This document shows positions 1 to 31,430 of a stretch of DNA of 64,000 nt, piece by piece; position 1 is the first letter of the stretch, and each line of letters begins with the position of its first letter. This DNA is from Escherichia phage 55. A program made the position numbers and the translations under genes. The notes under the pieces are model-generated. The model saw nothing but the letters and a program-made list of their open reading frames with translations, was not told the origin of the DNA and searched no databases. The stretch lies in sequence record OQ599310. One strand, 5' to 3'.

Positions 1-402
1 AGTATGTACTTGAACACCGGGCATTATTCTCACGGTGATGCAGGATTCATTGCGCCTAATGATGTGTTGATTCATATTAGTCGTTCTGGTAAAACTGAAG
101 AAATGATAGGCGTGGCTAAGCATCTTAAAATGATTCGACCGAACGTCAAACAGATTCTGTTGCATTGTAACCCAGACATTCCACAAGAAAATGAAGCCCT
201 TTTTGATTACTCTTTCTGTACAGGCATCGCGGTAGAGGTTGATGAGAATTCTCTGGCTCCGACCATGTCCACTACATTGTTGTTAGCGCTTATCGATACG
301 TTTGCTATCAACCTTTCGTCTGAACGTGGATTTACCTCTAATGACTTCCTTAAGTTCCATCCAGGCGGTGCACTAGGTGCCATGTTACGAGGCGAGCAAT
401 GA
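1..402 (+). CDS. SIS-domain sugar-phosphate isomerase, KpsF/KdsD-like (arabinose-5-phosphate isomerase family); 5' end lies outside the window
   Basis: Translation aligns to the C-terminal half of the KdsD SIS domain (HGD.G, ISRSG, APT.STT, HPGGALG motifs); no CBS domains follow; the Met at 4 is internal to the alignment so the gene starts upstream. Confidence 0.7.
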   Translation, partial: SMYLNTGHYSHGDAGFIAPNDVLIHISRSGKTEEMIGVAKHLKMIRPNVKQILLHCNPDIPQENEALFDYSFCTGIAVEVDENSLAPTMSTTLLLALIDTFAINLSSERGFTSNDFLKFHPGGALGAMLRGEQ

Positions 403-542
403 AAGCAATAACAATAGGACTTTTACTATTGATGCTTGCCATGACTATCTACTGGAGCTTAACGGCTCCAGTAATGATTCCAACACTTGTAATTGGATGG
501 ATTATGATTGGTCTACAGGCAAAGTATGAATGCTTTAACTAG
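399..542 (+). CDS. small hydrophobic protein (47 aa, two predicted TM helices)
   Basis: ATG overlaps the stop of the upstream gene (ATGA); continuous ORF with strongly hydrophobic translation; below the ORF-track length cutoff. Confidence 0.3.
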   Translation: MKAITIGLLLLMLAMTIYWSLTAPVMIPTLVIGWIMIGLQAKYECFN

Positions 543-555
543 AATAGTGTACAAT
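531..555 (+). promoter_or_regulatory. candidate MotA-dependent middle promoter (MotA box TGCTTTA, then TACAAT -10 about 12 bp downstream)
   Basis: TGCTTTA at 531-537 and TACAAT at 550-555 upstream of the 584 ORF. Confidence 0.3.
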
Positions 556-583
556 ACACCTACTTACCAATGAGGACTTCAAC

Positions 584-2269
584 ATGAAAAAAGCTGTTAT
601 TCTTGGTGCTGGATTAGCAACTCGTTTATATCCAATTACTCACCATATTCCTAAGGTGCTTGTTAACTATAAACAAGACACTATTCTGAGCAATTTGTAT
701 ACAATTTATTCTGACCTTGGCGCAGATGAAATTATTGTAGTAGTTCATTCAAAATTTGCTGAAACTGTTCGAGCTTATTGTGAGCAAGAAGGGTTCAATG
801 TGACTATTCGTACAGTTGATGAAGCGTATGGATCTGCTTATGCTCTTGCTAAATTACACAAAGATTTAGACGGCCATAATGTAATTGTTAACTGGTGTGA
901 TATTATTCCTGATTTTGGTTCATGGTCTTGGAATGTCAACGCAATCTATGTTAAGGGTGATGAATGTCGATATAATTTCGACGGTGAAAATATCACTAAC
1001 GTAGGTTCAACAGGCGGTAATGTTGTAGGAATTTATCAGTTCAAAGACTGGGAATTCTATATGGGTTCTACCGATGAGGAAATTCATGAATACTGCAAAG
1101 GACGTGATTTCGTAGAATTCCTTTACAGCGGCGCATTCAATAAATCAGAGCTTATGAATATAATTGATTTAGGTGATATGCCTAAACTTGAAAAAGCTCA
1201 TGAAGTTCGTGAACTTAATCGTAGTTTTAATGCAGTTGAAATTGGTGAAGAAACTGTAACTAAATTCGCATTAACCGAACAGGGACGAGCTCTTCAGAAA
1301 GATGAGATTTCATGGTATTTGAAAGTGAAATCAGATTCAGTTCCTCAGTTAGTTTCTGTTAATGAAAACAATTTTGAAATGGAACGTATTAAAGGTAAGC
1401 CGGCATTTGAATATATTAAATCCAAATCAAGTCTTGCTCGTCCACAAATTGTTGATGCAATTTTAGATGCACTGAAATTCAGCACAGACACGTATTTTGT
1501 AAGTCCTGAAACTGTTCGTCGTGATTTCACTAAAGAATTCTATACGAAAGTTATTGATCGTTGTGAAAGCATTCAACCATTGATTGATTCATTTGGTAAA
1601 ATCACACATGTGAACTACACTAAGATTGGACGTCTGAAGCCAATGTTGAAACAAGCTTTAGAACATCTTATTCGTTATCATAACCGTTCTCAGGGACAGT
1701 ACTCTGTTATTCATGGTGACCCGAACTTCAGTAATACTATGATTACTGATAACGGCGAAGTCAAGTTTATCGACCCTCGTGGATATTTTGGCGAAACCAA
1801 GATTTACGGGCCAAAATTGTATGACGAAGCTAAAGTGCTTTATGCTGTTTCAGGTTATGATGAATTCAATGCTAATCCGACCTGGGGACAGTTTACTATT
1901 GATGAAACAACTTGTAATGTGACTATTAACATCAATCCATTAATTTACAAATATGGAAAGATGAGTTCGTTTAACGAGTATCATCATTTGGCGGTGGCAA
2001 TTATCTGGATTGCATTAGGTGGTTATTTCAAGAATAATCCACTTAAAGCGGTAGCCGCATATTATAAAGGTATGGAACTTCTGACTAAGCAATTACGTAA
2101 CATGGGCCGTGTACTTCAAGACGGCTCTATTAGTTATGACGTAGCAGAACCTGTAACGGCTACTCTGATTACAAAAAATCCTGGTAAATGGGTACTAACT
2201 GATAAAGAAACTGGTGTTTCCTATCGTCCAATCGGTGGCGATATCACTCACCAATGGGAACGAATCTAA
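584..2269 (+). CDS. bifunctional sugar-1-phosphate nucleotidyltransferase (N-terminal, RmlA/GalU-like) fused to APH/NahK-like anomeric sugar kinase (C-terminal)
   Basis: N-terminus ILGAGLATRLYPIT..PKVLV matches the G-x-G-T-R-L-Y-P-I-T nucleotidyltransferase signature; C-terminal region has HGDPNFSN catalytic loop and FIDPRG typical of aminoglycoside-phosphotransferase-fold kinases; GAGGA RBS upstream. Confidence 0.65.
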   Translation: MKKAVILGAGLATRLYPITHHIPKVLVNYKQDTILSNLYTIYSDLGADEIIVVVHSKFAETVRAYCEQEGFNVTIRTVDEAYGSAYALAKLHKDLDGHNVIVNWCDIIPDFGSWSWNVNAIYVKGDECRYNFDGENITNVGSTGGNVVGIYQFKDWEFYMGSTDEEIHEYCKGRDFVEFLYSGAFNKSELMNIIDLGDMPKLEKAHEVRELNRSFNAVEIGEETVTKFALTEQGRALQKDEISWYLKVKSDSVPQLVSVNENNFEMERIKGKPAFEYIKSKSSLARPQIVDAILDALKFSTDTYFVSPETVRRDFTKEFYTKVIDRCESIQPLIDSFGKITHVNYTKIGRLKPMLKQALEHLIRYHNRSQGQYSVIHGDPNFSNTMITDNGEVKFIDPRGYFGETKIYGPKLYDEAKVLYAVSGYDEFNANPTWGQFTIDETTCNVTININPLIYKYGKMSSFNEYHHLAVAIIWIALGGYFKNNPLKAVAAYYKGMELLTKQLRNMGRVLQDGSISYDVAEPVTATLITKNPGKWVLTDKETGVSYRPIGGDITHQWERI

Positions 2270-2655
2270 TGCACCGTGTAGAAAACATGCTTAATCTTTG
2301 TTTTGATGTCGATGATTGTATAACAGAGTGGAATAACAATCGTGATTACGTGAACTTCAAACCAGACGTCGAAATGGTGTCTGCCATTAATGCCTTGTAT
2401 GATGCAGGGCATACCATAACGCTTTACACTGCTCGCGGTATGAAGTCAGTAGGTCCCGGTCGTATAGCAATTGACATTCTCCCGAGTCTGATTCAGAACT
2501 TGGAAAACATTGGCTTGAAGTACCATAATTTGCTAACACATAAACCAGTATATGATTGGATTATCGACGACAAAGCTATGCGTCCTGACGAATTCAAAGC
2601 TCTTATGAATAAAGGCGAATTCGAAACATTTAAATCATATAAACCGAATCTATAA
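2254..2655 (+). CDS. HAD-superfamily phosphatase (small, resembling the phosphatase domain of polynucleotide kinase)
   Basis: Motifs CFDVDDCIT (motif I), AGHTITLYTARG, YDWIIDDKA parallel the pseT phosphatase-domain motifs [21 protein letters not shown] in the same window; alternative start at 2269 (TAATG overlap). Confidence 0.55.
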   Translation: MGTNLMHRVENMLNLCFDVDDCITEWNNNRDYVNFKPDVEMVSAINALYDAGHTITLYTARGMKSVGPGRIAIDILPSLIQNLENIGLKYHNLLTHKPVYDWIIDDKAMRPDEFKALMNKGEFETFKSYKPNL

Positions 2656-2709
2656 TAATTTAAGTAAGACCTGCAAAAACCATCGCATCAATTAACGCGA
2701 GATGCAAAA

Positions 2710-3870
2710 ATGAACACTTTTAAAATCGGAACGAATTTTGATTTAGCTCTTCTTGATAAAATCGTAGAGCTCAATAAAACCTATCCTAATAGCTTGATAA
2801 ACGAAGTATATGGCTCTACAAGAGAAATGGCTTTTGTAGCAGCCAGACCTGATTTTAGGCTTCCTGACGTTGACAAAAAGATGTTAGAAGACTACGTTAA
2901 ACGTTGTAACGAATTAGGTATTTGCTTTAACTATACACTCAACACGATAAATCCTGGTTCAAAAAGAGAACTAGTTGAGTGGAAGAAGAAAGCTATTCAG
3001 GATTATGTTCAGTATCTTTGGTCAATAGGCGTATGGCGTATTACTATCGCTAACCCTGTTGTTATGGAAATTGTTCGTGAAGTCAATAAAGATATTGAGA
3101 TTGAAGTTTCAACAATTCTACATGTCGATGCTGTAACTCAAATCAAATACTTGCACGACCAATATAACATCAAAAAAGTCTGTTGCGGAATTCATAAGAA
3201 CCGTTCAGTTTCTTTCCTGAAGCGTGCAGCAGAGTTTTGCAATAAGAACAATATAATATTTGAAGTTCTTGTAAATGAGTTCTGTTCTAATGCTGGTAAA
3301 GGGTATACAACACATTGTAGTTATCGTGACTCTTGCTATATTTTCCATAGTACTGATGTTACCGCTGATGATGCTAAATCCTTAAATGGATATCCAATGC
3401 AGCACTGTATTAAAGCTCGTGATACAGATCCATTTAACTGGTTGAGAACTCGTTTTGTTCGTCCTCAAGATTTGAAACTTTATAATGATATTGGTATCAC
3501 TCAATTCAAAGTTTCAGGACGTACAGGTAGCACAGACTACATTTTGAAAGTTCTTGAAGCATACGCTTCTGAAAAGTTTGAAGGTAATTTGTTAGAACTG
3601 TGGAAGCCTTTAGAGACTATTTTCACTCTTGAAAACGAAACTGAGTTTTCACATACAGTAAATATTGAAACCTCTTTGTTAGATGGCTTTTTAGAAAAAA
3701 GGTGGTTCAGACATCCAGATTTTGATTGTGCTAATGAAATCTGTGGGTCAACGTGTACATATTGTGAAAGGTATTATAAACGTCAATTATCTAAAAACGG
3801 GTTAGCAGAAAACTCCATATCTATTATTGATATAACTAGCTCTGATGACGCTTTGAGATACCCGGAATGA
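2710..3870 (+). CDS. Cys-rich protein with divergent peptidase-U32-like motifs (family that includes Fe-S dependent hydroxylases RlhA/TrhP/UbiU-V); function unknown
   Basis: Segments FNYTLNTI, EVLVNEFCSNAGKGYTTHCSYRDSC and FKVSGRTGSTDY resemble the U32 core and GR motifs; assignment is from memory of the family signature and is tentative. Confidence 0.4.
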   Translation: MNTFKIGTNFDLALLDKIVELNKTYPNSLINEVYGSTREMAFVAARPDFRLPDVDKKMLEDYVKRCNELGICFNYTLNTINPGSKRELVEWKKKAIQDYVQYLWSIGVWRITIANPVVMEIVREVNKDIEIEVSTILHVDAVTQIKYLHDQYNIKKVCCGIHKNRSVSFLKRAAEFCNKNNIIFEVLVNEFCSNAGKGYTTHCSYRDSCYIFHSTDVTADDAKSLNGYPMQHCIKARDTDPFNWLRTRFVRPQDLKLYNDIGITQFKVSGRTGSTDYILKVLEAYASEKFEGNLLELWKPLETIFTLENETEFSHTVNIETSLLDGFLEKRWFRHPDFDCANEICGSTCTYCERYYKRQLSKNGLAENSISIIDITSSDDALRYPE

Positions 3871-4106
3871 TTTCTAGAAAAAGTTTTAATTATAAACTTA
3901 ACGAAGAGATTTTGACTATGAAACTGAACACTAACGAACAAATTCTTAAAAAGGCCCTTATGGGCCTGTTTGAAACCAAAGCGGCTAAAGTGATTAAAGA
4001 ACCTGTTCAATTGGAATACTACACTGATGCATTCCTTCATAGTGTTCTTGGAAGTATAGATTCTGAAGCTTTACGTTATATCAACATTGCCAAGAAATTC
4101 AAATAA
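3867..4106 (+). CDS. hypothetical protein (79 aa)
   Basis: ORF with ATGA start overlap to upstream gene. Confidence 0.4.
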   Translation: MISRKSFNYKLNEEILTMKLNTNEQILKKALMGLFETKAAKVIKEPVQLEYYTDAFLHSVLGSIDSEALRYINIAKKFK

Positions 4107-4148
4107 GCTTTATGAATTGAGTATATAATAAATTGTATTGAGGTAAAC

Positions 4149-4865
4149 ATGGGAAAACATAACACAATGAAATATATCAAAGCCGCAGATTTTCAAACCG
4201 CATTTAAAGCAGTCAATCGTGAAATTTTAGAAAACCCGGAATTCGTAACCGATTCTCGTATTGGACGTTGTAATGAAATTGGGTCTATGACAGTAGTTGT
4301 TGACAATCCATCATCATTCAAAATGACCGACCCACGTATTAACCGCATCTCTTATGAATATGCCGAAGACTTCTGGAAGTTTATGATTTCTGGTGGTACT
4401 GATGCAGAAGAAGCGTTTAAGGCATATCCTAATGTCGCTAAATTTATTTCTAAACCTAAATCAGACGCTTTGCCTGCAAACTTCAACACTTTCTACGGTC
4501 CTCGCATTGCGGCCCAATTACCAGCTCTTCTAAAAGAACTTAAAGAGAAACCTAACTCTCGAAGAGTTGTGTTCCAAATTCTAGAAAGTTCTGATCAGGC
4601 TTTGCTTGATTCGGACGAAACACTTGAATATCCATGTACTGACTCAGTAACTTATTATATTCGTGATGGTAAGCTTTATACCCACTGCCATATGCGTTCT
4701 CAGAACTGTGCTGTTGTTATGCAGTTGGATTTTTATCTCCAAGGAAAATTACTTCATTATATCGCTAACGAATGCGGTGTAGAAGTTGGTGATTATACTC
4801 ATACCATGGTAAGTGCCCATGTGTTTGAACGTGATTTTGATTATGTTAAAGGATTCCTTGACTAA
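4149..4865 (+). CDS. 42: dCMP hydroxymethylase (thymidylate-synthase-fold), gene 42
   Basis: TS-family core YPCTD...GKLYTHCHMRSQN with Cys nucleophile; size 238 aa; sits upstream of uvsX as gene 42 does in T4. Confidence 0.7.
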   Translation: MGKHNTMKYIKAADFQTAFKAVNREILENPEFVTDSRIGRCNEIGSMTVVVDNPSSFKMTDPRINRISYEYAEDFWKFMISGGTDAEEAFKAYPNVAKFISKPKSDALPANFNTFYGPRIAAQLPALLKELKEKPNSRRVVFQILESSDQALLDSDETLEYPCTDSVTYYIRDGKLYTHCHMRSQNCAVVMQLDFYLQGKLLHYIANECGVEVGDYTHTMVSAHVFERDFDYVKGFLD

Positions 4866-5764
4866 TGGCTATTTTCCGCGTACCAATCTTGAGTATGCGG
4901 TCTTATGAAACTGGACAGTATGCTATCCTTAAGGATGGCAACTTCCAACTTCATTTGCACCGTGCTAATCCAGGTGATGTGATTACATATCCACGTAATG
5001 CATCTGATATTAAAGAATGCGAACGTCTTTTCCCAGAATTTAAGTTTGTTCCATTATGGTATAAAGATAACGCGTATAACACTCGTAAATATTTCTGGTC
5101 TGAAAATGAATTTGTGGTTGATTCATTAATTGCTTATTATGATTGTGATTTTCTAATCACAGATATCACCGGATATGACGGCGCTTTTGATGTTGAATTC
5201 AATTTCAATATCACTGCAGACCCTAATAAACCACGTTTTTATATTGACGAATTCTTAAAAACCGATATGTTGTCGGTTAATCGTTCACTTCAAACTACTG
5301 TGTTGAATGAACGTCAAAAAGAAGTGCTGGTTAACGCAGGTGCAGATGGTAATAAGATTATCGTAACGCAGAAAGTTATACGTCCTTCCATCATGCAGCG
5401 TCTTGTAGGTGATTTGGCCCCTATTCATCTAGATGGTATTTTTCATCCATTTCGAATTAGTGACCCATGCTATCGTTTTGAACAAGTGGTTGAATGTGCA
5501 ATTCAATTAGGTCAACCGCTTTATATAACCGATCCAAATAATAGTTTCGACAGAAATAAGTATCCTGAAGAAGCGCTGATTCGAATTTTTAAACCAACTA
5601 AAACTGAGTACTATCAAATTCTTAAAGGACGACCGAAGATTCAATATTTCGAAAATCCTGAAGAAGTATTCCATCCAGGTCTTGGCGAGTTCATCTACTT
5701 TAATGCTTTAATTTCTTCGCCGTATAATATACCTAAATACGAAGATGTCGTAATCGAGGAATAA
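4865..5764 (+). CDS. hypothetical protein occupying the locus of T4 beta-glucosyltransferase; candidate DNA-modifying transferase
   Basis: 299-aa ORF, TAATG overlap with gene 42; no similarity I can recognise to T4 beta-gt. Confidence 0.45.
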   Translation: MAIFRVPILSMRSYETGQYAILKDGNFQLHLHRANPGDVITYPRNASDIKECERLFPEFKFVPLWYKDNAYNTRKYFWSENEFVVDSLIAYYDCDFLITDITGYDGAFDVEFNFNITADPNKPRFYIDEFLKTDMLSVNRSLQTTVLNERQKEVLVNAGADGNKIIVTQKVIRPSIMQRLVGDLAPIHLDGIFHPFRISDPCYRFEQVVECAIQLGQPLYITDPNNSFDRNKYPEEALIRIFKPTKTEYYQILKGRPKIQYFENPEEVFHPGLGEFIYFNALISSPYNIPKYEDVVIEE

Positions 5765-5765
5765 A

Positions 5766-6314
5766 ATGGCTAAAATTATTTTAGTAGATGGCCCAGATAA
5801 TGCCGGTAAAACAACTTTCATTAATGACATAATGGAAATTAGTGAAAGATACGTAAAGATTGATTTCCCTAAACGAACAGTTGATGGACGTTTCGATGTT
5901 AAGTCTCGAAATGAAGTTGGTTGTTTCGAAACGATGTTGAATTATTTAGACCCTACTAAGATTTATCTGTTAGACCGTGGATATATTAGTAACTGGGTTT
6001 ATGGACGTATTCGACAAGATGCGGACTCTGTTCTTGATGTTTATGAGCAGGATTATGTTCGTCTTTGCCAAAACCATGATGTGTTCACAATTATTTTAAC
6101 ACGTAACGAAATGACTGAAAGTTTTGAAGACGACCTTATTACTTTGTCTTCATTCGGTTTTAATACAGTCATTTCACATTTTGAAGAGTTTGCAATTCAT
6201 AACAAAATCCAAACGTATCAATTACTTAATCATGATGGTGCTAACAAAGTTATAGGATTTAATGCAAGCGAACGTAATGGTTTGATTATAGAAATCATCA
6301 AATGGGCTCGTTAA
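5766..6314 (+). CDS. thymidylate-kinase-like P-loop nucleotide kinase
   Basis: P-loop VDGPDNAGKTT and LDRGYISNWVYG resembling the TMK DR(Y/H)..S..AYQ motif. Confidence 0.5.
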   Translation: MAKIILVDGPDNAGKTTFINDIMEISERYVKIDFPKRTVDGRFDVKSRNEVGCFETMLNYLDPTKIYLLDRGYISNWVYGRIRQDADSVLDVYEQDYVRLCQNHDVFTIILTRNEMTESFEDDLITLSSFGFNTVISHFEEFAIHNKIQTYQLLNHDGANKVIGFNASERNGLIIEIIKWAR

Positions 6315-6332
6315 GAGCCATTTAAAGTTTTA

Positions 6333-6359
6333 AATGCTGTATAACCCTTAGTATATAAT
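6333..6359 (+). promoter_or_regulatory. candidate middle (MotA-type) promoter upstream of uvsX
   Basis: TGCTGTA (near MotA box) followed about 12 bp later by TATATAAT. Confidence 0.3.
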
Positions 6360-6412
6360 CATCTTATCTTTTAAACATGAGTAAAATATAATGACGCCTA
6401 TGGAAAAATACA

Positions 6413-7585
6413 ATGTCTGATTTAAAATCTCGTCTGATTAAAGCTTCTACTTCTAAAATGACTGCAGACTTGACTAAGTCTAAGCTGTTTAATAATCGTG
6501 ATGAAGTCCCTACTCGTATTCCGATGTTGAATATCGCACTAGGTGGTGCTCTGAATGCAGGATTGCAATCAGGCTTGACTATTTTTGCTGCACCTTCTAA
6601 ACATTTTAAAACATTGTTTGGACTAACTATGGTTGCAGCGTATATGAAGAAATATAAAGATGCAATCTGTTTGTTCTATGACTCAGAATTTGGTGCTTCA
6701 GAATCTTATTTTCGTTCAATGGGTGTTGATTTAGACCGTGTAGTTCATACACCAATTCAGTCCGTCGAACAACTTAAAGTTGATATGACTAATCAGCTTG
6801 ACGCGATTGAACGCGGTGATAAAGTTATTATCTTTATCGATTCAATCGGTAATACTGCATCTAAGAAAGAAACCGAAGATGCATTGAACGAGAAAGTCGT
6901 AGGTGATATGTCTCGTGCTAAGGCACTTAAATCTCTGTTCCGTATTGTGACCCCGTATCTGACTATTAAAGATATTCCATGTGTTGCAATTAACCATACA
7001 GCAATGGAAATCGGCGGACTATATCCTAAAGAGATTATGGGTGGTGGTACAGGTATTCTTTACTCTGCTAACACTGTATTCTTTATCTCTAAACGTCAGG
7101 TTAAAGAAGGTACAGAATTGACCGGTTATGACTTCACGTTGAAAGCAGAAAAATCTCGTACAGTTAAAGAAAAATCTACTTTCCCAATCACAGTTAATTT
7201 TGATGGTGGTATCGACCCATTCAGTGGCTTGTTAGAAATGGCAACTGAAATTGGATTTGTTGTTAAGCCTAAAGCCGGGTGGTACGCTCGCGAATTCCTT
7301 GACGAAGAAACAGGCGAAATGATTCGTGAAGAGAAATCGTGGCGTGCTAAAGCTACTGATTGTGTAGAATTCTGGGGACCTTTGTTTAAACACAAACCTT
7401 TCAGAGATGCAATTGAAACTAAATATAAACTAGGTGCTATCTCTTCTATTAAAGAAGTTGATGACGCTGTTAACGACCTTATTAATTGCAAAGCAACAAC
7501 TAAAGTTCCTGTTAAAGCTTCTGATGCTCCGTCTGCAGCAGATATTGAAAACGACCTTGACGAAATGGAAGATTTCGATGAATAA
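6413..7585 (+). CDS. uvsX: UvsX RecA-like recombinase
   Basis: 390 aa; near-identity over long stretches with T4 UvsX (MSDLKSRLIKASTSK..., FVVKPK.GWYAREFLDEETGEMIREEKSWRAK). Confidence 0.95.
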   Translation: MSDLKSRLIKASTSKMTADLTKSKLFNNRDEVPTRIPMLNIALGGALNAGLQSGLTIFAAPSKHFKTLFGLTMVAAYMKKYKDAICLFYDSEFGASESYFRSMGVDLDRVVHTPIQSVEQLKVDMTNQLDAIERGDKVIIFIDSIGNTASKKETEDALNEKVVGDMSRAKALKSLFRIVTPYLTIKDIPCVAINHTAMEIGGLYPKEIMGGGTGILYSANTVFFISKRQVKEGTELTGYDFTLKAEKSRTVKEKSTFPITVNFDGGIDPFSGLLEMATEIGFVVKPKAGWYAREFLDEETGEMIREEKSWRAKATDCVEFWGPLFKHKPFRDAIETKYKLGAISSIKEVDDAVNDLINCKATTKVPVKASDAPSAADIENDLDEMEDFDE

Positions 7586-24519: not shown

Positions 24520-24942
24520 ATGGCTTTTAAAGGTTTTGAAGTTGGTAAGAAATATCGTATTATCAAAGGTCAAGAAGATAATTTCTTGAGAATTCTTAAT
24601 ACAACTGGTAAACGTCTTAACACTACTCTGCATACAGTTTTATTATCAAGAGATTTTATTGTAGAAGAGATGATTGGTTACGGTGTTTCAATGATTGCCG
24701 CTGAAACCGATGGACCTGGACGTACAATCATTAGTATGCAAGGTGATATTCTGCTTTATGGTGCAGAATTTAAATTCTTTGAAGAAGTTAAGGAACCAGA
24801 TACAGCTGTCGATTTCAAAAAAGGCTCTATAGAATTTGTTGATGGTTCGGTTATCGTATCAGGCGATGTGGTCATTACAGTTAAAAGTGAACAAGGGCGT
24901 TTGGCTGCAATTGATGCACTTCAGAAAATTAAATTTAAATAA
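24520..24942 (+). CDS. hypothetical protein
   Basis: 140-aa ORF followed by terminator. Confidence 0.5.
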   Translation: MAFKGFEVGKKYRIIKGQEDNFLRILNTTGKRLNTTLHTVLLSRDFIVEEMIGYGVSMIAAETDGPGRTIISMQGDILLYGAEFKFFEEVKEPDTAVDFKKGSIEFVDGSVIVSGDVVITVKSEQGRLAAIDALQKIKFK

Positions 24943-24960
24943 GGGCTTCGGCCCTTTTTG
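24941..24960 (+). terminator. rho-independent terminator
   Basis: GGGCTTCGGCCC then TTTTT. Confidence 0.7.
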
Positions 24961-25005
24961 CTTTAGATTTCGGATGATAGAATACCTTCATAACGAGGAG
25001 ACAAC

Positions 25006-26823
25006 ATGATTAAAAATGAAATTAAGGTATTGTCAGATGTAGAACATATTAAGAAACGTAGTGGTATGTATATTGGTTCTTCTGCTAAAGAAGCCCACGA
25101 GCGTTTTTTGTTTGGTAAATATCAACAAGTTGAATATGTTCCTGGCCTGGTTAAATTAATCGATGAGATTATTGACAACTCGGTTGATGAAGCTATTCGT
25201 ACATCATTTAAGTTTGCAAATAAAATTGATGTGCAAATTAAAAATAATCAAGTTTCGGTGGAAGATAACGGACGTGGTATTCCTCAAGGTTTAGTTACCG
25301 ACCAAACAGGTGAACAAATTCCTGGGCCTGTAGCAGCCTGGACTATTCCAAAGGCCGGTGGTAACTTTGGTGATGATTCTGAACGCAAGACTGGTGGTAT
25401 GAACGGCGTCGGGAGTAGTTTAACTAATATCTTCTCTACGTTGTTTACAGGCATCACGTCAGATGGCGAAAATGAAATCACTGTTAACTGTTCAAACGGA
25501 ATGGAAAACAAATCATGGTCTTCTAAGAAATCTAAAGGTAAAGGCACTAAAGTAATCTTCACTCCTGATTTCACTTCATTTGAAGAGCATAATTTATCTC
25601 AAATTTATTTAGATATTACTTTAGACCGACTTCAAACATTGGCAGTCGTTTATCCTGATATCAAGTTCACATTTAATGGTAAAAAGGTTGATGGTAATTT
25701 TAAACGATTTGCTAAACAATTTGGTGAAGATAACATCATTCAAGAAAATGATAAAGTCTCTATAGCATTCACAACATCACCAGATGGCTTCCGTCATTTA
25801 ACTTATGTGAATAACATCCATACTAAAAATGGTGGTCATCATGTTGAATGTGTAATGGATGATATCTGCGAACATCTTTTGCCGGGTATTAAAAAGAAAT
25901 ATAAGGGTATTGAAGTCACTAAAGCTCGTGTTAAAGAATGTCTCACAATGTTGATGTTTATTAGAGACATGAGCAACATGCGTTTTGATTCTCAGACTAA
26001 AGAACGTTTAACGTCAACGTATGGTGATATTCGTAATCATATCCAATTAGATACTAAGAAAATTGCTCAGGCACTTCTTAAAAACGAAGCCTTGATTATG
26101 CCTATTGTTGAAGCAGCATTAGCTCGTAAATTGGCGGCAGAAAAGGCTGCAGAAACTAAAGCAGCTAAAAAGGCAACTAAAGCTAAGGTTCATAAGCATA
26201 TTAAAGCTAACCAATGTGGTAAAGATGCAGATACGACATTGTTTTTAACAGAAGGTGATTCGGCAATTGGTTATCTCATTGATGTTCGTGACCGTGAACT
26301 ACACGGTGGATTCCCATTACGTGGTAAGGTGATGAATAGCTGGGGTATGTCATATGCTGATATGATGAAGAACAAAGAGCTCTTTGATATCTGTGCTATC
26401 ACGGGTCTTATTCTTGGTGAAAAGGCAGAGAATACGAACTATCGTAATATTGCAATTATGACTGATGCCGATCATGACGGTCTTGGAAGCATTTATCCGG
26501 CTTTGCTTGCTTTCTTTAGTAATTGGCCTGAATTGTTTGAACAAGGACGTATTCGCTTTGTTAAAACACCTGTAATTATTGCACAAATTGGCAAAACTCA
26601 AAAATGGTTTTATACTGTAGCTGAGTATGAAGAAGTTAAAGATACACTGCCTAAGCATAGTATTCGATACATCAAGGGATTAGGCTCACTTGAAAAGTCA
26701 GAATATCGTGAAATGATTCAGAACCCTGTGTACGACGTAGTTAAACTTCCTGAAAATTGGAAAGAACTCTTTGAAATGTTGATGGGTGATGATTCAGAAC
26801 TTCGTAAAGAATGGATGTCCTAA
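25006..26823 (+). CDS. 39: topoisomerase II large (ATPase, GyrB-like) subunit, uninterrupted gene 39 (covers T4 39+60)
   Basis: 605 aa; GHKL ATPase motifs IDNSVDEA, GRGIP; TOPRIM region; single continuous ORF. Confidence 0.9.
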   Translation: MIKNEIKVLSDVEHIKKRSGMYIGSSAKEAHERFLFGKYQQVEYVPGLVKLIDEIIDNSVDEAIRTSFKFANKIDVQIKNNQVSVEDNGRGIPQGLVTDQTGEQIPGPVAAWTIPKAGGNFGDDSERKTGGMNGVGSSLTNIFSTLFTGITSDGENEITVNCSNGMENKSWSSKKSKGKGTKVIFTPDFTSFEEHNLSQIYLDITLDRLQTLAVVYPDIKFTFNGKKVDGNFKRFAKQFGEDNIIQENDKVSIAFTTSPDGFRHLTYVNNIHTKNGGHHVECVMDDICEHLLPGIKKKYKGIEVTKARVKECLTMLMFIRDMSNMRFDSQTKERLTSTYGDIRNHIQLDTKKIAQALLKNEALIMPIVEAALARKLAAEKAAETKAAKKATKAKVHKHIKANQCGKDADTTLFLTEGDSAIGYLIDVRDRELHGGFPLRGKVMNSWGMSYADMMKNKELFDICAITGLILGEKAENTNYRNIAIMTDADHDGLGSIYPALLAFFSNWPELFEQGRIRFVKTPVIIAQIGKTQKWFYTVAEYEEVKDTLPKHSIRYIKGLGSLEKSEYREMIQNPVYDVVKLPENWKELFEMLMGDDSELRKEWMS

Positions 26824-26846
26824 GCTCCTTCGGGAGCTTCATTTTA
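26823..26846 (+). terminator. stem-loop AGCTCCTTCGGGAGCT after gene 39
   Basis: hairpin with UUCG loop, T-rich tail. Confidence 0.5.
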
Positions 26847-26865
26847 ATTTTAATAAGGCTTAATT

Positions 26866-27966
26866 ATGAAAGTTATGTTTATCCCATCTCGTGCAGTCCC
26901 ATTTAATCCTGACCGTGTACAAGGTGGTCTTGAAGCAGTACATTTAAATGTGTTGAAATATTTAGTTTCTATCGGTGCCGATATTGATTATATTGGTTTT
27001 GATAATGACACATTTGGTGATTGGAAGGTTAATCATCATCCTGTTGGTCATCTGACTAAATTCAGTCTAGGTATGAGTTATACTATGGCTCGTAAGATTG
27101 TTGAACTAGCCGGCATCCATGAATACGATTTTGTTGTTACTATGGAACCGACTAAACTAACCGTTCAGGCAATTAAAGACGCAGGTCTCTCTAAAGTTCA
27201 TAAGAATTTTATGGCAACACCATTTGAACCGGTATCTCGTGGCATTGTTCAAATTTGGGACCAGACTATTCAAATTCATAAGAACGGTGGTAAGAGTTAT
27301 GCTCCTACTAAAGCCTTCCGTGAATTTGAACGTAAATATTGTTATATGACTTCAGGTCTGACTGACAAAATTGATTATGATTATTGGCGAGCAAATCCGT
27401 TGTTTGAAGCCGAAGATTATCCGGTTATTTGTTTGAATGAGAAACCTGAAGTTCTTCCGGCGACTGATCTGATTATTAGTGCACAACGTTATGACACTAA
27501 AATGCGTCGTACTGATGTTGCTCTTGAAGCGATTAAAGCACTAGGCGAAAATGGTGCAGGATACTGTCCTAGTAAATGGGCACCACCAGCTAAATATCCT
27601 GTTATTATTGATGCTCCACACAGTGAAATTATGGAACGTCTTAAAACAGCTAAAGCACTTATTAATACGTGTCCTGACACAGGTACGGTAGAGAATAGTT
27701 CTATTGAAGCCATCTCTAAAGGTGTCCCTGTAATCCAGCTAGTTTTTAAGGATTATCCTCATGCGACATTTGAATACGACCCAGATACTGTGCGTGTAGA
27801 AATTGATTCCTCTACTCCTAAGAAAGAAGTAGTTGCGCTTTACACAAAAGCTGTATTAGAATTCACTGACACATACGAAGCTCGAGTTAAACGTGCTGAA
27901 GCAGTATGGAAGAAGTATAACCGAGATGCGGTTGTTGCGATGTGGGATAAAATCTTCACAGCGTAA
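26866..27966 (+). CDS. candidate GT-B fold glycosyltransferase (possible DNA hmC glycosyltransferase)
   Basis: N-terminus MKVMFIPSRA...GG and C-terminal GTVENSSIEAISKGVPVIQ resemble GT4-type motifs; lies between gene 39 and rIIA. Confidence 0.5.
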   Translation: MKVMFIPSRAVPFNPDRVQGGLEAVHLNVLKYLVSIGADIDYIGFDNDTFGDWKVNHHPVGHLTKFSLGMSYTMARKIVELAGIHEYDFVVTMEPTKLTVQAIKDAGLSKVHKNFMATPFEPVSRGIVQIWDQTIQIHKNGGKSYAPTKAFREFERKYCYMTSGLTDKIDYDYWRANPLFEAEDYPVICLNEKPEVLPATDLIISAQRYDTKMRRTDVALEAIKALGENGAGYCPSKWAPPAKYPVIIDAPHSEIMERLKTAKALINTCPDTGTVENSSIEAISKGVPVIQLVFKDYPHATFEYDPDTVRVEIDSSTPKKEVVALYTKAVLEFTDTYEARVKRAEAVWKKYNRDAVVAMWDKIFTA

Positions 27967-28058
27967 ATCCTGAATCGCCTGAGGCACTATTACACATAAG
28001 ATGATAGATTATATGGTCTTTAGTAATAGTGCCCTAGGAATCTACTGAAGAGAATATT

Positions 28059-28259
28059 ATGAGAACATATAACGTGGACTTGGAACTTTTTGATAAAGCA
28101 GTGCTCCGGGAATTCCGGCTTATCCAAAGATTTTTTGATATCGAGTCAGCAGAGTCCTTTAAAGAACGCTTTAAAGAAATTCGATATAAAATACAAACCG
28201 ATACAGCTACTAAAGAAGAACTTCTTGAAGTAGCAGAAATTTTTAAACGTAACTTGTGA
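28059..28259 (+). CDS. hypothetical small protein
   Basis: 66-aa ORF. Confidence 0.35.
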   Translation: MRTYNVDLELFDKAVLREFRLIQRFFDIESAESFKERFKEIRYKIQTDTATKEELLEVAEIFKRNL

Positions 28260-28271
28260 TGAGAGAAAAAT

Positions 28272-30485
28272 ATGATTATTGAAACGGCTAAAGAAACGAT
28301 TATTGGTTCAGGCGGTAAGAGCACAGCATTCACTATTCAAGGCAATAGCAAAGTTTATAAGATTTTGTCTAATGACCTTTATACAAACAAAGAATTGGCT
28401 TGTGTACGTGAATTAATTACAAACTGTATCGATGGACAAATTCTTAACGGTTGCACTGATAAGTTTATTGTTCAGGCTCCAGGTCGTTTAGACCCACGTT
28501 TTGTAGTTCGTGATTTTGGACCTGGTATGAGCGATTTCACCATTCGAGGTAATGACGAAGAGCCAGGAATTTATAACTCATATTTTGCTTCAACTAAAAC
28601 ATCGAGTAACGATTTCATTGGTGGATTCGGACTCGGCTCTAAAGCTCCATTAGCATATACCGATACGTTTAACCTTACGTCTTATCACAACGGTGAAGTT
28701 CGTGGTTACGTAATCTACCAAGATGACACAGGTCCACAAATTAAGCCGACCTTTGTAGATAAGATGGGTCCTGATGACCGTACGGGTGTAGAAGTAGTTG
28801 TACCGGTTAACCCGGAAGATTTTGAAAAGTTTGCATCCGAAATTGCATATGTTATGCGTCCTCTAGGTGATATTGCAGAAGTTCGTGGTGTTAAAGATAT
28901 TAAATACTTCCCAGAATTTGATGATGTATATTTGGCCAAGGAAGCTCCATGGGGTGAACGTGGTAATATCATGGCTGTTTATGGTGGTATTGTATATCCA
29001 ATCGGAAGTGTTATTAAAGAACAAACATGGATGATGACGCGATGCACTACAGCTTATATTAAATTCCCTATGGGTGAACTAGACGTAGCTCCGTCTCGTG
29101 AAGCATTGTCATTTGATAAACGTACAGTAGCAAATATCCATAAACGCGTTGCAGAAATCGATGCTAAATTGTTCGCTGAAGATTCTAAGAAATGGATTGA
29201 TTGTAAATACCCACGTCATGTGTTCCGTGAAATTGATTCTCTTGGCTATACCGCTCGTAAATACATGGAAAAGGCCGGGTCTAATATTGAATCACTGAAA
29301 TACTCTAAAGAACAACTAACTTATTCTGAGTTGTACAAACGTTTTAAAATGGGGCCTGAGTGGTGTAATCTTGGCGTCGTATATGATATCGTTGAATCCC
29401 CTCGTCTTCGTCGTATTCGTGAAAGTGGTAGCTCAACGGCAACCATTTCAATTAACAGTCTGATTGGCATTAACATTAAAAATGTTGAAATTGTTATTGA
29501 CGACGTTAAGGGACGCGTTCCATTAATGCGAGCTCTTAATTCAATTGAAATGTCTAAAGACGAGGTTAAATTAACTGGTAAAGTTCCACGCGGTTTTGGT
29601 AAAAGTGTACTATTCGTTGACCCTACAGACGAAGATGCAATGAAACTTCTGGAACGCCTTAAAGTTATCTTTGATGGCGACAACATTAACATGTACAAGA
29701 CTTCAGAGCTTTTACAAATCGTTAAGCCATGGATTGAAGTCAGGAAACGAACTAATGAGCCTCGTCCTAAATCCCCAAGTGCTCATCGGTTCTTTAAGAA
29801 TGAAAACGATGTTTGGGTATCAGAAGATCTCTTTATTCCAGCGAGTGAAGCAGATGAAATCCAAGGTTATGCTGTAATTCGTAATCGTTCTAATGCTGAA
29901 TGTCTTGACGCAGATAAAGGTTGGTTGAACTATGACTCCAATTTCTTGACCCGTATTGCTGATTTGTCAGGTATTAAAGAGTTCACTGTAGTTCGTCCAC
30001 AGATTGCTAAGAAAGTTCGTAAACTTGGTGAAGTAGAATGCTTGTTCGAAAAATCAATTAATGACTATATTACGCTAATCGATAAAGTGGATTATGATGA
30101 GTATGTATCACCAAGTCGTAGAGCACAGCCTTATTTGAATCATATTACTCGTAACGAAGAGCTTAACTTCCTTAGTAAGTATTTTAGCTCTAAGAACAAA
30201 GAAATCAGTAAAGACTTTGCAAAACTCTCAACAGTAAATAATCGTTGGGGATGGAATCGATTCGCAGGTGCTACTAATACAGACCTGAATAAGAAGTTAG
30301 AATTGTGTGCTAAAATTTTCGATAAGCTTAAAGATAATGCTTACGATAATGATGATAAAATGGTTATTGAATTCGAAACCAATTATCATATTGTGTCAGA
30401 CTACATGGGACGACGTGGTACTCTTTCTAAAGAACAAGTCGCTCAAATCGTTAAATTCATGAAGGCCGTGGAAGCGGCCAAATAA
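28272..30485 (+). CDS. rIIA: rIIA protein
   Basis: 737 aa; N-terminal GHKL-like ATPase motifs (ELITNCIDG, DFGPGMS, GGFGLGSK); followed by rIIB. Confidence 0.85.
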   Translation: MIIETAKETIIGSGGKSTAFTIQGNSKVYKILSNDLYTNKELACVRELITNCIDGQILNGCTDKFIVQAPGRLDPRFVVRDFGPGMSDFTIRGNDEEPGIYNSYFASTKTSSNDFIGGFGLGSKAPLAYTDTFNLTSYHNGEVRGYVIYQDDTGPQIKPTFVDKMGPDDRTGVEVVVPVNPEDFEKFASEIAYVMRPLGDIAEVRGVKDIKYFPEFDDVYLAKEAPWGERGNIMAVYGGIVYPIGSVIKEQTWMMTRCTTAYIKFPMGELDVAPSREALSFDKRTVANIHKRVAEIDAKLFAEDSKKWIDCKYPRHVFREIDSLGYTARKYMEKAGSNIESLKYSKEQLTYSELYKRFKMGPEWCNLGVVYDIVESPRLRRIRESGSSTATISINSLIGINIKNVEIVIDDVKGRVPLMRALNSIEMSKDEVKLTGKVPRGFGKSVLFVDPTDEDAMKLLERLKVIFDGDNINMYKTSELLQIVKPWIEVRKRTNEPRPKSPSAHRFFKNENDVWVSEDLFIPASEADEIQGYAVIRNRSNAECLDADKGWLNYDSNFLTRIADLSGIKEFTVVRPQIAKKVRKLGEVECLFEKSINDYITLIDKVDYDEYVSPSRRAQPYLNHITRNEELNFLSKYFSSKNKEISKDFAKLSTVNNRWGWNRFAGATNTDLNKKLELCAKIFDKLKDNAYDNDDKMVIEFETNYHIVSDYMGRRGTLSKEQVAQIVKFMKAVEAAK

Positions 30486-30494
30486 GGAAACATT

Positions 30495-31430
30495 ATGTAC
30501 AATATCAAATGCTTGTCCCAAGAAGAACAGTTAGAAGCTTACGGCCTGGTTGAATCAGGCAAATGGACTCGTAAAGAAATTGCCGATTACTTCAATATTT
30601 CTACTGACACTCTTCGTAAGATTGTTAAGAACTTTAAAGCTGAAGAGAAAGCAGCTGAATTTGAAGACGAAGAACAGGTCCAAGAAAATGATGAACCTAT
30701 TATCGGCGGACATCGTCCTGAAATCGTATGGAACGCGTCATCTAAATTTATTTCAATCATTGAAGGACGCGTAGCATACAATGCGACCCCATCAAGTCAT
30801 GCAAATTTTGAAGAAATTAAAGCTAATCTGGTCGCAGGAAACCTTAGTAAAGCTGTCGAACTTATTAACATCAAGAAAGCTATTACTAAGTTTGTTGATG
30901 GTAATGTTACTATTGAAGGTGGTAGTTTATTTTATCAAGGTATAGAGATTCGTTCAGGGCTGGTTAACCGTATTATTGATTCCATGGAAAAAGGCGAAGA
31001 CTTTAAATTCTATCTGCCATTCCTTGAAAACTTGTTAGAAAACCCAAGCGAAAAAGCTGTACAACGTTTATTCGACTTCTTGGTTGCAAACGATATTGAA
31101 ATCACTGAAGATGGGTATTTCTATGCGTGGAAAGTAGTTCGTAAGGACTATTTAGACTGCTATAGTGGTACATTTGATAACTCCCCAGGTAAAGTTGTTT
31201 CAATGCCTCGTACTCGAGTTAACGACGATGATACTCAAACCTGTTCTCGCGGTCTCCACGTTTGTGCTAAATCTTATATTCGCCACTTTGGTTCAAGCTC
31301 AGATAAAGTTGTTAAGGTTAAAGTTCATCCACGTGATGTTGTATCCATCCCGGTTGACTATGGTGATGCTAAGATGCGTACTTGTCGTTATGAAGTAATT
31401 TCAGACGTTACTGAATTATTTGCAGAATAA
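30495..31430 (+). CDS. rIIB: rIIB protein
   Basis: 311 aa, adjacent to rIIA. Confidence 0.8.
   Translation: MYNIKCLSQEEQLEAYGLVESGKWTRKEIADYFNISTDTLRKIVKNFKAEEKAAEFEDEEQVQENDEPIIGGHRPEIVWNASSKFISIIEGRVAYNATPSSHANFEEIKANLVAGNLSKAVELINIKKAITKFVDGNVTIEGGSLFYQGIEIRSGLVNRIIDSMEKGEDFKFYLPFLENLLENPSEKAVQRLFDFLVANDIEITEDGYFYAWKVVRKDYLDCYSGTFDNSPGKVVSMPRTRVNDDDTQTCSRGLHVCAKSYIRHFGSSSDKVVKVKVHPRDVVSIPVDYGDAKMRTCRYEVISDVTELFAE

Follow-up and report, generated by a model that had tools for sequence, protein, structure and literature searches.

The gene that lies between the topoisomerase gene and rIIA in Escherichia phage 55 raises two linked questions: what kind of enzyme it encodes, and on which substrate that enzyme would act. 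An initial annotation of the stretch of DNA analysed here (64,000 nucleotides of sequence record OQ599310, hereafter the window) had placed a candidate glycosyltransferase (GT) at this position and proposed that it modifies hmC in DNA. Our analysis upholds the gene and its fold and replaces the proposed chemistry. With a probability of roughly 0.8, the product is a GT-B, GT4-like enzyme that adds a second arabinose to DNA carrying mono-arabinosylated 5-hydroxycytosine.

The open reading frame (ORF) at 26866..27966 (+) begins with ATG, encodes 366 amino acids and is the sole long ORF on either strand, the longest antisense ORF across it being 74 amino acids. Both sequence motifs quoted initially are present: the protein starts with MKVMFIPSRAVPFNPDRVQGG, and GTVENSSIEAISKGVPVIQ occupies residues 273-291. 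In tblastn searches 211 phage records match the protein, with coverage of at least 80% in 209 of them, and its Mosigvirus and Acinetobacter-phage versions share 60 or more invariant columns at 43% identity, which argues against a chance ORF. Megablast of positions 25000-30500 returned 141 phage records with at least 80% query coverage, nearly all of them Mosigvirus (RB69-like), with E. coli O157 typing phage 3 as the best match at 98.5%; judged by its sequence, the window comes from a Mosigvirus (RB69-like) phage.

An intercistronic hairpin (Table 1) overlaps the topoisomerase stop codon and is followed by an AAGG ribosome-binding site about 8 nt before the ATG at 26866. Terminator-like hairpins are in excess across 24900..28400 (6, versus 1.8 +/- 1.3 in shuffles), and another GC-rich UUCG-tetraloop hairpin, at 24941..24956, lies directly 3' of the ORF at 24520..24942. 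A sigma-70-like promoter scan around the gene found 7 sites versus 12 in shuffled sequence, which is below expectation. As the initial annotation stated, T4 lacks a counterpart here; genes 60, 60.1 and mobA are found in its place. The topoisomerase large subunit of the window is a single 605-aa protein, as in the '60plus39' gene of RB69, whereas in T4 genes 39 and 60 each encode a part of it and are separated by 60.1 and mobA, so that the glycosyltransferase gene adjoins the region of T4's topoisomerase-splitting insertion.

Table 1. Features of the window discussed in the text, with positions counted from its first nucleotide.
Feature	Position	Strand	Evidence or context
Arabinose-5-phosphate isomerase, C-terminal part (RB69 gp55)	1..402	+	Pfam SIS domain; gene starts upstream of the window
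Sugar-1-phosphate nucleotidyltransferase (N-terminal) and kinase (C-terminal) fusion (RB69 gp52:53, HY126 AfhE)	584..2269	+	Pfam NTP_transferase, E 8e-10
HAD-like sugar phosphatase (RB69 gp51, HY126 AfhF)	2254..2655	+	NCBIfam capsule biosynthesis phosphatase, E 2e-13
Peptidase_U32-family protein (RB69 gp50)	2710..3870	+	Pfam Peptidase_U32, E 7e-11; 382/386 identical to RB69 ORF050c
79-aa ORF (RB69ORF049c)	3867..4106	+	Between the U32 gene and the ThyA-like gene
Thymidylate-synthase-family 5-hydroxy-dCMP synthase	4149..4865	+	Pfam Thymidylat_synt, E 2e-15
Second GT-B glycosyltransferase (RB69 gp46:47, DLP3 gp79 family)	4865..5764	+	299 aa; no Pfam match
Small nucleotide kinase (RB69 gp45, DLP3 gp78)	5766..6314	+	179/182 identical to RB69 ORF045c; followed by uvsX
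Topoisomerase II large-subunit gene	25006..26823	+	Upstream neighbour of the glycosyltransferase gene
Intercistronic hairpin, UUCG tetraloop (AAGCUCC-UUCG-GGAGCUU)	26822..26839	+	Terminator-like scan and sequence
rIIA.1	28059..28259		Downstream of the glycosyltransferase gene; Pfam T4_RIIA1, E 2e-30
rIIA	28272..30485		Downstream of rIIA.1; followed by rIIB

RB69 ORF003c (gp3; NP_861693, AAP75905) is of equal length and identical at 365 of 366 positions, the sole substitution being T327 in the window and I in RB69, and is thus effectively the same gene. Its slot also matches, RB69 reading rIIA, rIIA.1, ORF003c and then the fused 60plus39 topoisomerase gene. The glycosyltransferase of phage HY126, solved in the apo form (PDB 9iqz) and with UDP (PDB 9ir0; both released 2025-07-16), is identical at 361 of 366 positions and differs by N56T, Y159H, G163A, A231V and S315F. 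In phage ChristianSchoenbein (Bas46) the counterpart, bas46_0103, is annotated 'putative hmC-arabinosyltransferase'.

Thomas et al. 2018 detected arabinose in the DNA of RB69 and, from HHpred matches to GT-B enzymes, suggested that ORF003c is an arabinosyltransferase (PMC6024577). Lee et al. 2026 name RB69 gp3 'beta-arabinosyltransferase 2' and gp46:47 'arabinosyltransferase 1', the gp3 assignment being a proposal only, and cite He et al. 2026 for the crystal structure of the HY126 hydroxylase (PMC13326640). The neighbouring codes 9iqz/9ir0 and 9iqc/9ir2/9iqu are consistent with a single HY126 study, that of He et al. 2026. The gene, fold, crystal structure and proposed role are therefore already known from the literature and the PDB, and the window gene itself is nothing new: its product differs by only 1-5 residues from a protein that was put forward in 2018, carries an annotation in the BASEL phage Bas46 and was crystallised together with UDP in 2025.

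The initial assignment to a two-Rossmann, GT4-like GT-B pattern is borne out by structure. The protein folds into two beta/alpha/beta domains of the Rossmann type, its C-terminal helix crosses over again to the N-domain, and its UDP-binding site is given by its identity to the solved complex. The HMM search suggested alongside that assignment (Glycos_transf_1/GT4) came back empty, although the fold is real: scanning the protein gave no Pfam family at E <= 10, Glycos_transf_1 and Glyco_transf_4 included, and no NCBIfam family at E <= 1. An HMM test alone would thus have wrongly dismissed the glycosyltransferase idea, and structure was needed. The fold is visible only in the structure and through a bridging homologue, the distant member P0015, which passes Glyco_transf_4 (31.9 bits versus a cut-off of 28.5) and links to the ORF003c family at E 8e-7.

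Across a 13-member alignment R208, R214, T268, T274, E281 and E303 are invariant, and G20, D88 and G141-G142 are nearly so. By analogy with GT4 enzymes, we equate R208-x5-R214 with the Arg/Lys pair responsible for binding the donor diphosphate, and E281 with the second, ribose-binding Glu of the E-x7-E motif. The description of this region as E-x7-E-like holds for its second half only. When aligned to P0015, P0016 and B. anthracis BA1558 (2jjm), all of which carry E-x7-E, the protein lacks the canonical motif and reads T272-G-T-V-E276-N-S-S-I-E281; the first Glu is replaced by Thr272 with a one-residue insertion, and only the second is invariant. Within the close family E276 is conserved, and it may compensate for the lost first Glu.

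GT4-type GT-B enzymes (PimA 2gej, BshA 3mbo/6n1x, MshA 3c4q, WaaG and sucrose-phosphate synthase 6kih) are 10-15% identical to the protein. They are retaining enzymes, whereas the linkage proposed for the window protein is beta and its proposed acceptor is a sugar on DNA. The alpha- and beta-glucosyltransferases of T4 (AGT 1y6f/1xv5; BGT) are among the closest known systems compared. At the sequence level, T4 a-gt and b-gt gave best E values of 5.5-13 against the protein (blastp, tblastn) and 2.6-4.0 against the window (tblastn), in agreement with the earlier statement that the window has no recognisable alpha- or beta-glucosyltransferase. No Tequatrovirus-type match occurs among the 211 tblastn records of the ORF003c family.

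Where the initial annotation departs from the evidence is the substrate. The ThyA-like protein of the window is identical at 237 of 238 positions to RB69 gp48, an experimentally confirmed 5-hydroxy-dCMP synthase that converts dCMP to 5-hydroxy-dCMP (PMC13326640 Table 1); it also matches PDB 9iqc/9ir2/9iqu at E 2e-161 and is only 25% identical to T4 gp42. MS/MS and NMR of RB69 DNA identified beta-D-Araf-(1->3)-alpha-D-Araf ether-linked to C5 of 5-hydroxy-dC, plus a mono-arabinosyl form. DNA of the Mosigvirus NP contains the same di- and mono-arabinosyl species, and the paper on NP calls the hmC assignment erroneous; the methylene bridge is absent from both RB69 and NP DNA. Double arabinosylation is cited for Bas46 and Bas47. 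On the strength of the near-identity to gp48, the distance from T4 gp42 and the chemistry of RB69 and NP DNA, we rejected hmC as the substrate base; sequence comparison indicates that the base modified by the window's pathway is 5-hydroxycytosine.

The genes at 1-6314, described initially as sugar-activation genes, do include nucleotide-sugar genes of the same DNA-glycosylation pathway, but a second GT-B glycosyltransferase (4865..5764, hereafter the cluster GT) lies among them. All are 97-100% identical to the RB69 arabinosylation cluster, ORF055c-045c. The isomerase fragment matches the C-terminus of the 211-aa RB69 ORF055c at 132 of 132 positions, and the phosphatase matches ORF051c at 126 of 128. 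The nucleotidyltransferase-kinase fusion is 98-99% identical to ORF053c and ORF052c together, with weak matches to kinase families in Pfam and matches to uridylyltransferase families in NCBIfam. By its correspondence to AfhE the fusion makes UDP-arabinofuranose, and the phosphatase, corresponding to AfhF, is reported to convert Araf-1,5-bisphosphate to Araf-1-phosphate (PMC13326640). The small kinase has a weak dTMP-kinase match in NCBIfam, and kinases of the RB69 gp45 type have structural matches to thymidylate kinase (PMC13326640 Table 1); it presumably acts on the modified nucleotide. Both the cluster GT (299 aa) and the fusion (561 aa) are single intact ORFs in the window, while the RB69 reference record splits them into ORF047c/046c and ORF053c/052c within flanking sequence that is 98-100% identical. 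This lends support to the published interpretation of the RB69 splits as sequencing errors.

With two glycosyltransferases in one pathway, the remaining question is which of them performs which step. In tblastn, 348 phage records each hold one copy of the cluster GT; they come from phages of Escherichia, Klebsiella, Serratia, Yersinia, Proteus, Edwardsiella and Acinetobacter and from Shewanella phage Thanatos. The ORF003c family occurs in 211 records at 267 places, with one copy in Mosigvirus and two in each of the 55 Acinetobacter records. By tblastn it is absent from the remaining cluster-GT phage groups, and its own records appear within cluster-GT groups, as judged by the host and organism breakdown rather than record by record. 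The window follows this pattern of co-occurrence, with the 5-hydroxy-dCMP synthase, the UDP-arabinofuranose synthesis genes and the base-proximal glycosyltransferase all at 1-6314. Thanatos is mono-arabinosylated with a single glycosyltransferase (PMC13326640), RB69, NP and Bas46/47 are di-arabinosylated, and DLP3 DNA is tri-arabinosylated. Among these few chemically analysed phages, 0, 1 and 2 copies of the ORF003c family thus go with 1, 2 and 3 arabinoses.

Biochemistry of the homologues in Acinetobacter phage DLP3 points the same way. DLP3 gp76 and gp77 together add a third arabinose from UDP-Araf onto RB69 virion DNA in vitro, each is inactive alone, and no glycosyltransferase acted on DNA with only 5hoC (PMC13326640). 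Based on the copy-number distribution, the DLP3 biochemistry and the published proposals, the window protein is most likely the second, chain-extending arabinofuranosyltransferase, and the cluster GT is the probable first, base-proximal (alpha) arabinosyltransferase. In Bas46, deletion of the 'arabinosyltransferase Aat' is reported to have sensitised the phage to a plasmid-borne defence; a viable Aat deletion fits a non-essential extension step, if Aat is the ORF003c orthologue.

The reverse order, in which the window protein places the first arabinose directly on the base and the cluster GT extends it, appears improbable. Both proteins have GT-B folds, so that fold alone leaves the order unsettled, and a primary role was proposed for ORF003c by Thomas et al. 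2018 on HHpred grounds (PMC6024577), in work that overlooked gp46:47 as a glycosyltransferase owing to its division in the RB69 record. Against this order, Thanatos, with its single pentose/arabinose, and many other genera have the ThyA-like gene and the cluster GT without the ORF003c family. The cluster GT also sits directly after the 5-hydroxy-dCMP synthase gene, in the position of T4 b-gt, and DLP3 gp76 and gp77 act on already arabinosylated DNA, not on 5hoC DNA. The initial view of the window protein as a transferase acting on the base is probably incorrect for a similar reason: the cluster GT is present in every arabinosylating phage, and the ORF003c family only in those with 2-3 arabinoses.

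The DLP3 proteins are informative relatives with differences of their own. DLP3 gp77 and gp76 are full-length homologues, 43% and 41% identical to the window protein, with which they have the invariant motifs in common. They form a tandem pair inside the DLP3 cluster and are 57% identical to each other, whereas the window has one copy of the family, about 20 kb from its arabinose cluster. Both members of the pair are required for activity and their product is tri-arabinosyl DNA; the window's relatives make only di-arabinosyl DNA. Since the two paralogues are closer to each other than to the window protein, their linkage specificity is not simply transferable, and since they are active only as a pair, the lone window enzyme may behave differently or need a partner.

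This dependence lends some weight to a further alternative, to which we nevertheless give little credence: that the window protein is a DNA arabinosyltransferase working only in complex with another glycosyltransferase, or at the nucleotide level before replication. Besides the inactivity of gp76 and gp77 when single, the crystal entries contain several chains (ids A and H; 4 chains over 2 entries). Mosigviruses, however, have one member of the ORF003c family, so that a paralogue pair is impossible and any partner would be the unrelated cluster GT. As for the nucleotide level, the third arabinose went onto purified virion DNA, which indicates that the family can act on DNA.

A target other than DNA (host lipopolysaccharide or lipid, a small molecule, or protein), with only a loose tie to the DNA-modification pathway, is very improbable. 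The closest structural relatives, PimA, WaaG, BshA, sucrose-phosphate synthase and tetrahydrobiopterin glucosyltransferase, do act on lipids, sugars or small molecules, the gene does lie apart from the arabinose cluster, and the literature searched, He et al. 2026 and Mahler et al. 2025 aside, yielded no direct activity assay of this orthologue.

In our preferred reading, with the window protein as a second, chain-extending transferase, the isomerase, the kinase/uridylyltransferase and the phosphatase (1-2655) would convert ribulose-5-phosphate to UDP-Araf, and the ThyA-like enzyme would make 5-hydroxy-dCMP. The cluster GT would then attach the first, alpha-linked arabinose. The window protein, a soluble GT-B enzyme, would bind UDP-D-arabinofuranose in its C-terminal Rossmann domain and add the second arabinose, giving the beta-D-Araf-(1->3)-alpha-D-Araf-O5-dC typical of Mosigvirus DNA. 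The thicker sugar coat would shield the DNA from nucleases and some other defences. The ORF, its near-identity to the RB69 and HY126 proteins, the fold, the pathway genes and the phylogenetic pattern are observed; that the acceptor is mono-arabinosylated DNA, which linkage arises and which transferase acts first are inferred.

As to stereochemistry, the nearest structural relatives are retaining GT4 enzymes, and both glycosyltransferases of the window most resemble retaining enzymes. With the second arabinose beta and the first alpha, one of the two steps must have a stereochemistry unusual for the fold class. A tentative and rather unlikely reading is that, if the donor is UDP-alpha-D-Araf, the window protein is an inverting enzyme that forms the beta-(1->3) arabinofuranosyl linkage on a GT4/GT5-like retaining scaffold, with T272 marking the switch. 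Among GT4-like enzymes it would then stand out as a mechanistic rarity, and it would be the first GT-B enzyme found to act, without help from a paralogue, on a furanose carried by DNA.

Arabinosylated 5-hydroxycytosine is a recently defined phage DNA hypermodification that blocks many restriction enzymes. According to the literature it guards the phage from the glycosylase Brig1 and from type I CRISPR-Cas and leaves it open to some type IV systems, BrxU among them. Arabinose number appears to change which defences work, which would make a chain-extending transferase a host-range determinant relevant to phage-therapy design. For the window, the useful outcome is the corrected chemistry, with 5hoC in place of hmC and a second sugar in place of the first, together with the recognition of a second glycosyltransferase.

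Sequence searches further show that the ORF003c family is very narrow. A word-index homologue search with the window protein gave 5 clusters, and a profile search run exhaustively over 1.84 billion representatives gave 12 matches at E <= 0.001. The protein matches PHROG 8302 over positions 1-366 of 366 (E 6e-223), a family labelled 'unknown function'. The distant members P0009 and P0010 lie on T4-like phage contigs with uninformative neighbours. In Shigella phage JK45 (MK962757.1, 1501..3104) an intact glycosyltransferase gene is followed by a 137-aa ORF that repeats its C-terminal part; this repeat would be due either to partial duplication in tandem, over about 500 bp, or to an artefact of assembly. 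The taxonomy line of this record reads Tequatrovirus despite its Mosigvirus-type genes. Among the 211 family records, one 'Tegunavirus' record (a Yersinia-phage genus) falls outside the Mosigvirus and Acinetobacter groups.

A separate observation concerns the Peptidase_U32-family gene of the cluster. Its product is unusually conserved, being 82-87% identical in Shewanella, Proteus, Klebsiella and Edwardsiella phages, versus only 47-72% for the adjacent glycosyltransferase in the same phages; Acinetobacter phages lack the gene. In Erwinia phage Virsaitis27 (compared locus 4992..6502) the U32 gene is followed directly by a type II chorismate mutase (Pfam CM_2, E 1.7e-11). The 79-aa ORF that occupies this slot in the window has no Pfam match at E <= 10 and no detectable similarity to the Virsaitis27 chorismate mutase. 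RlhA and TrhP are U32-family proteins. RlhA is an Fe-S enzyme that forms 5-hydroxycytidine in 23S rRNA with prephenate as hydroxyl donor, and TrhP, which forms ho5U in tRNA, likewise carries out a prephenate-dependent C5 hydroxylation of a pyrimidine. For the ThyA-like synthase of the phages, the oxygen source is O2 (PMC13326640). In view of the chorismate-mutase neighbour, the prephenate-using RlhA and TrhP and the O2-using synthase, the U32 protein may provide a prephenate-dependent, O2-independent second route to 5-hydroxycytosine beside an O2/flavin-dependent ThyA-like synthase. Lee et al. label gp50 only as 'sugar or heterocycle reductase', and neither their paper (PMC13326640) nor the literature searched mentions a prephenate route to 5-hydroxycytosine. 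The U32 gene may thus be the most interesting lead in the window.
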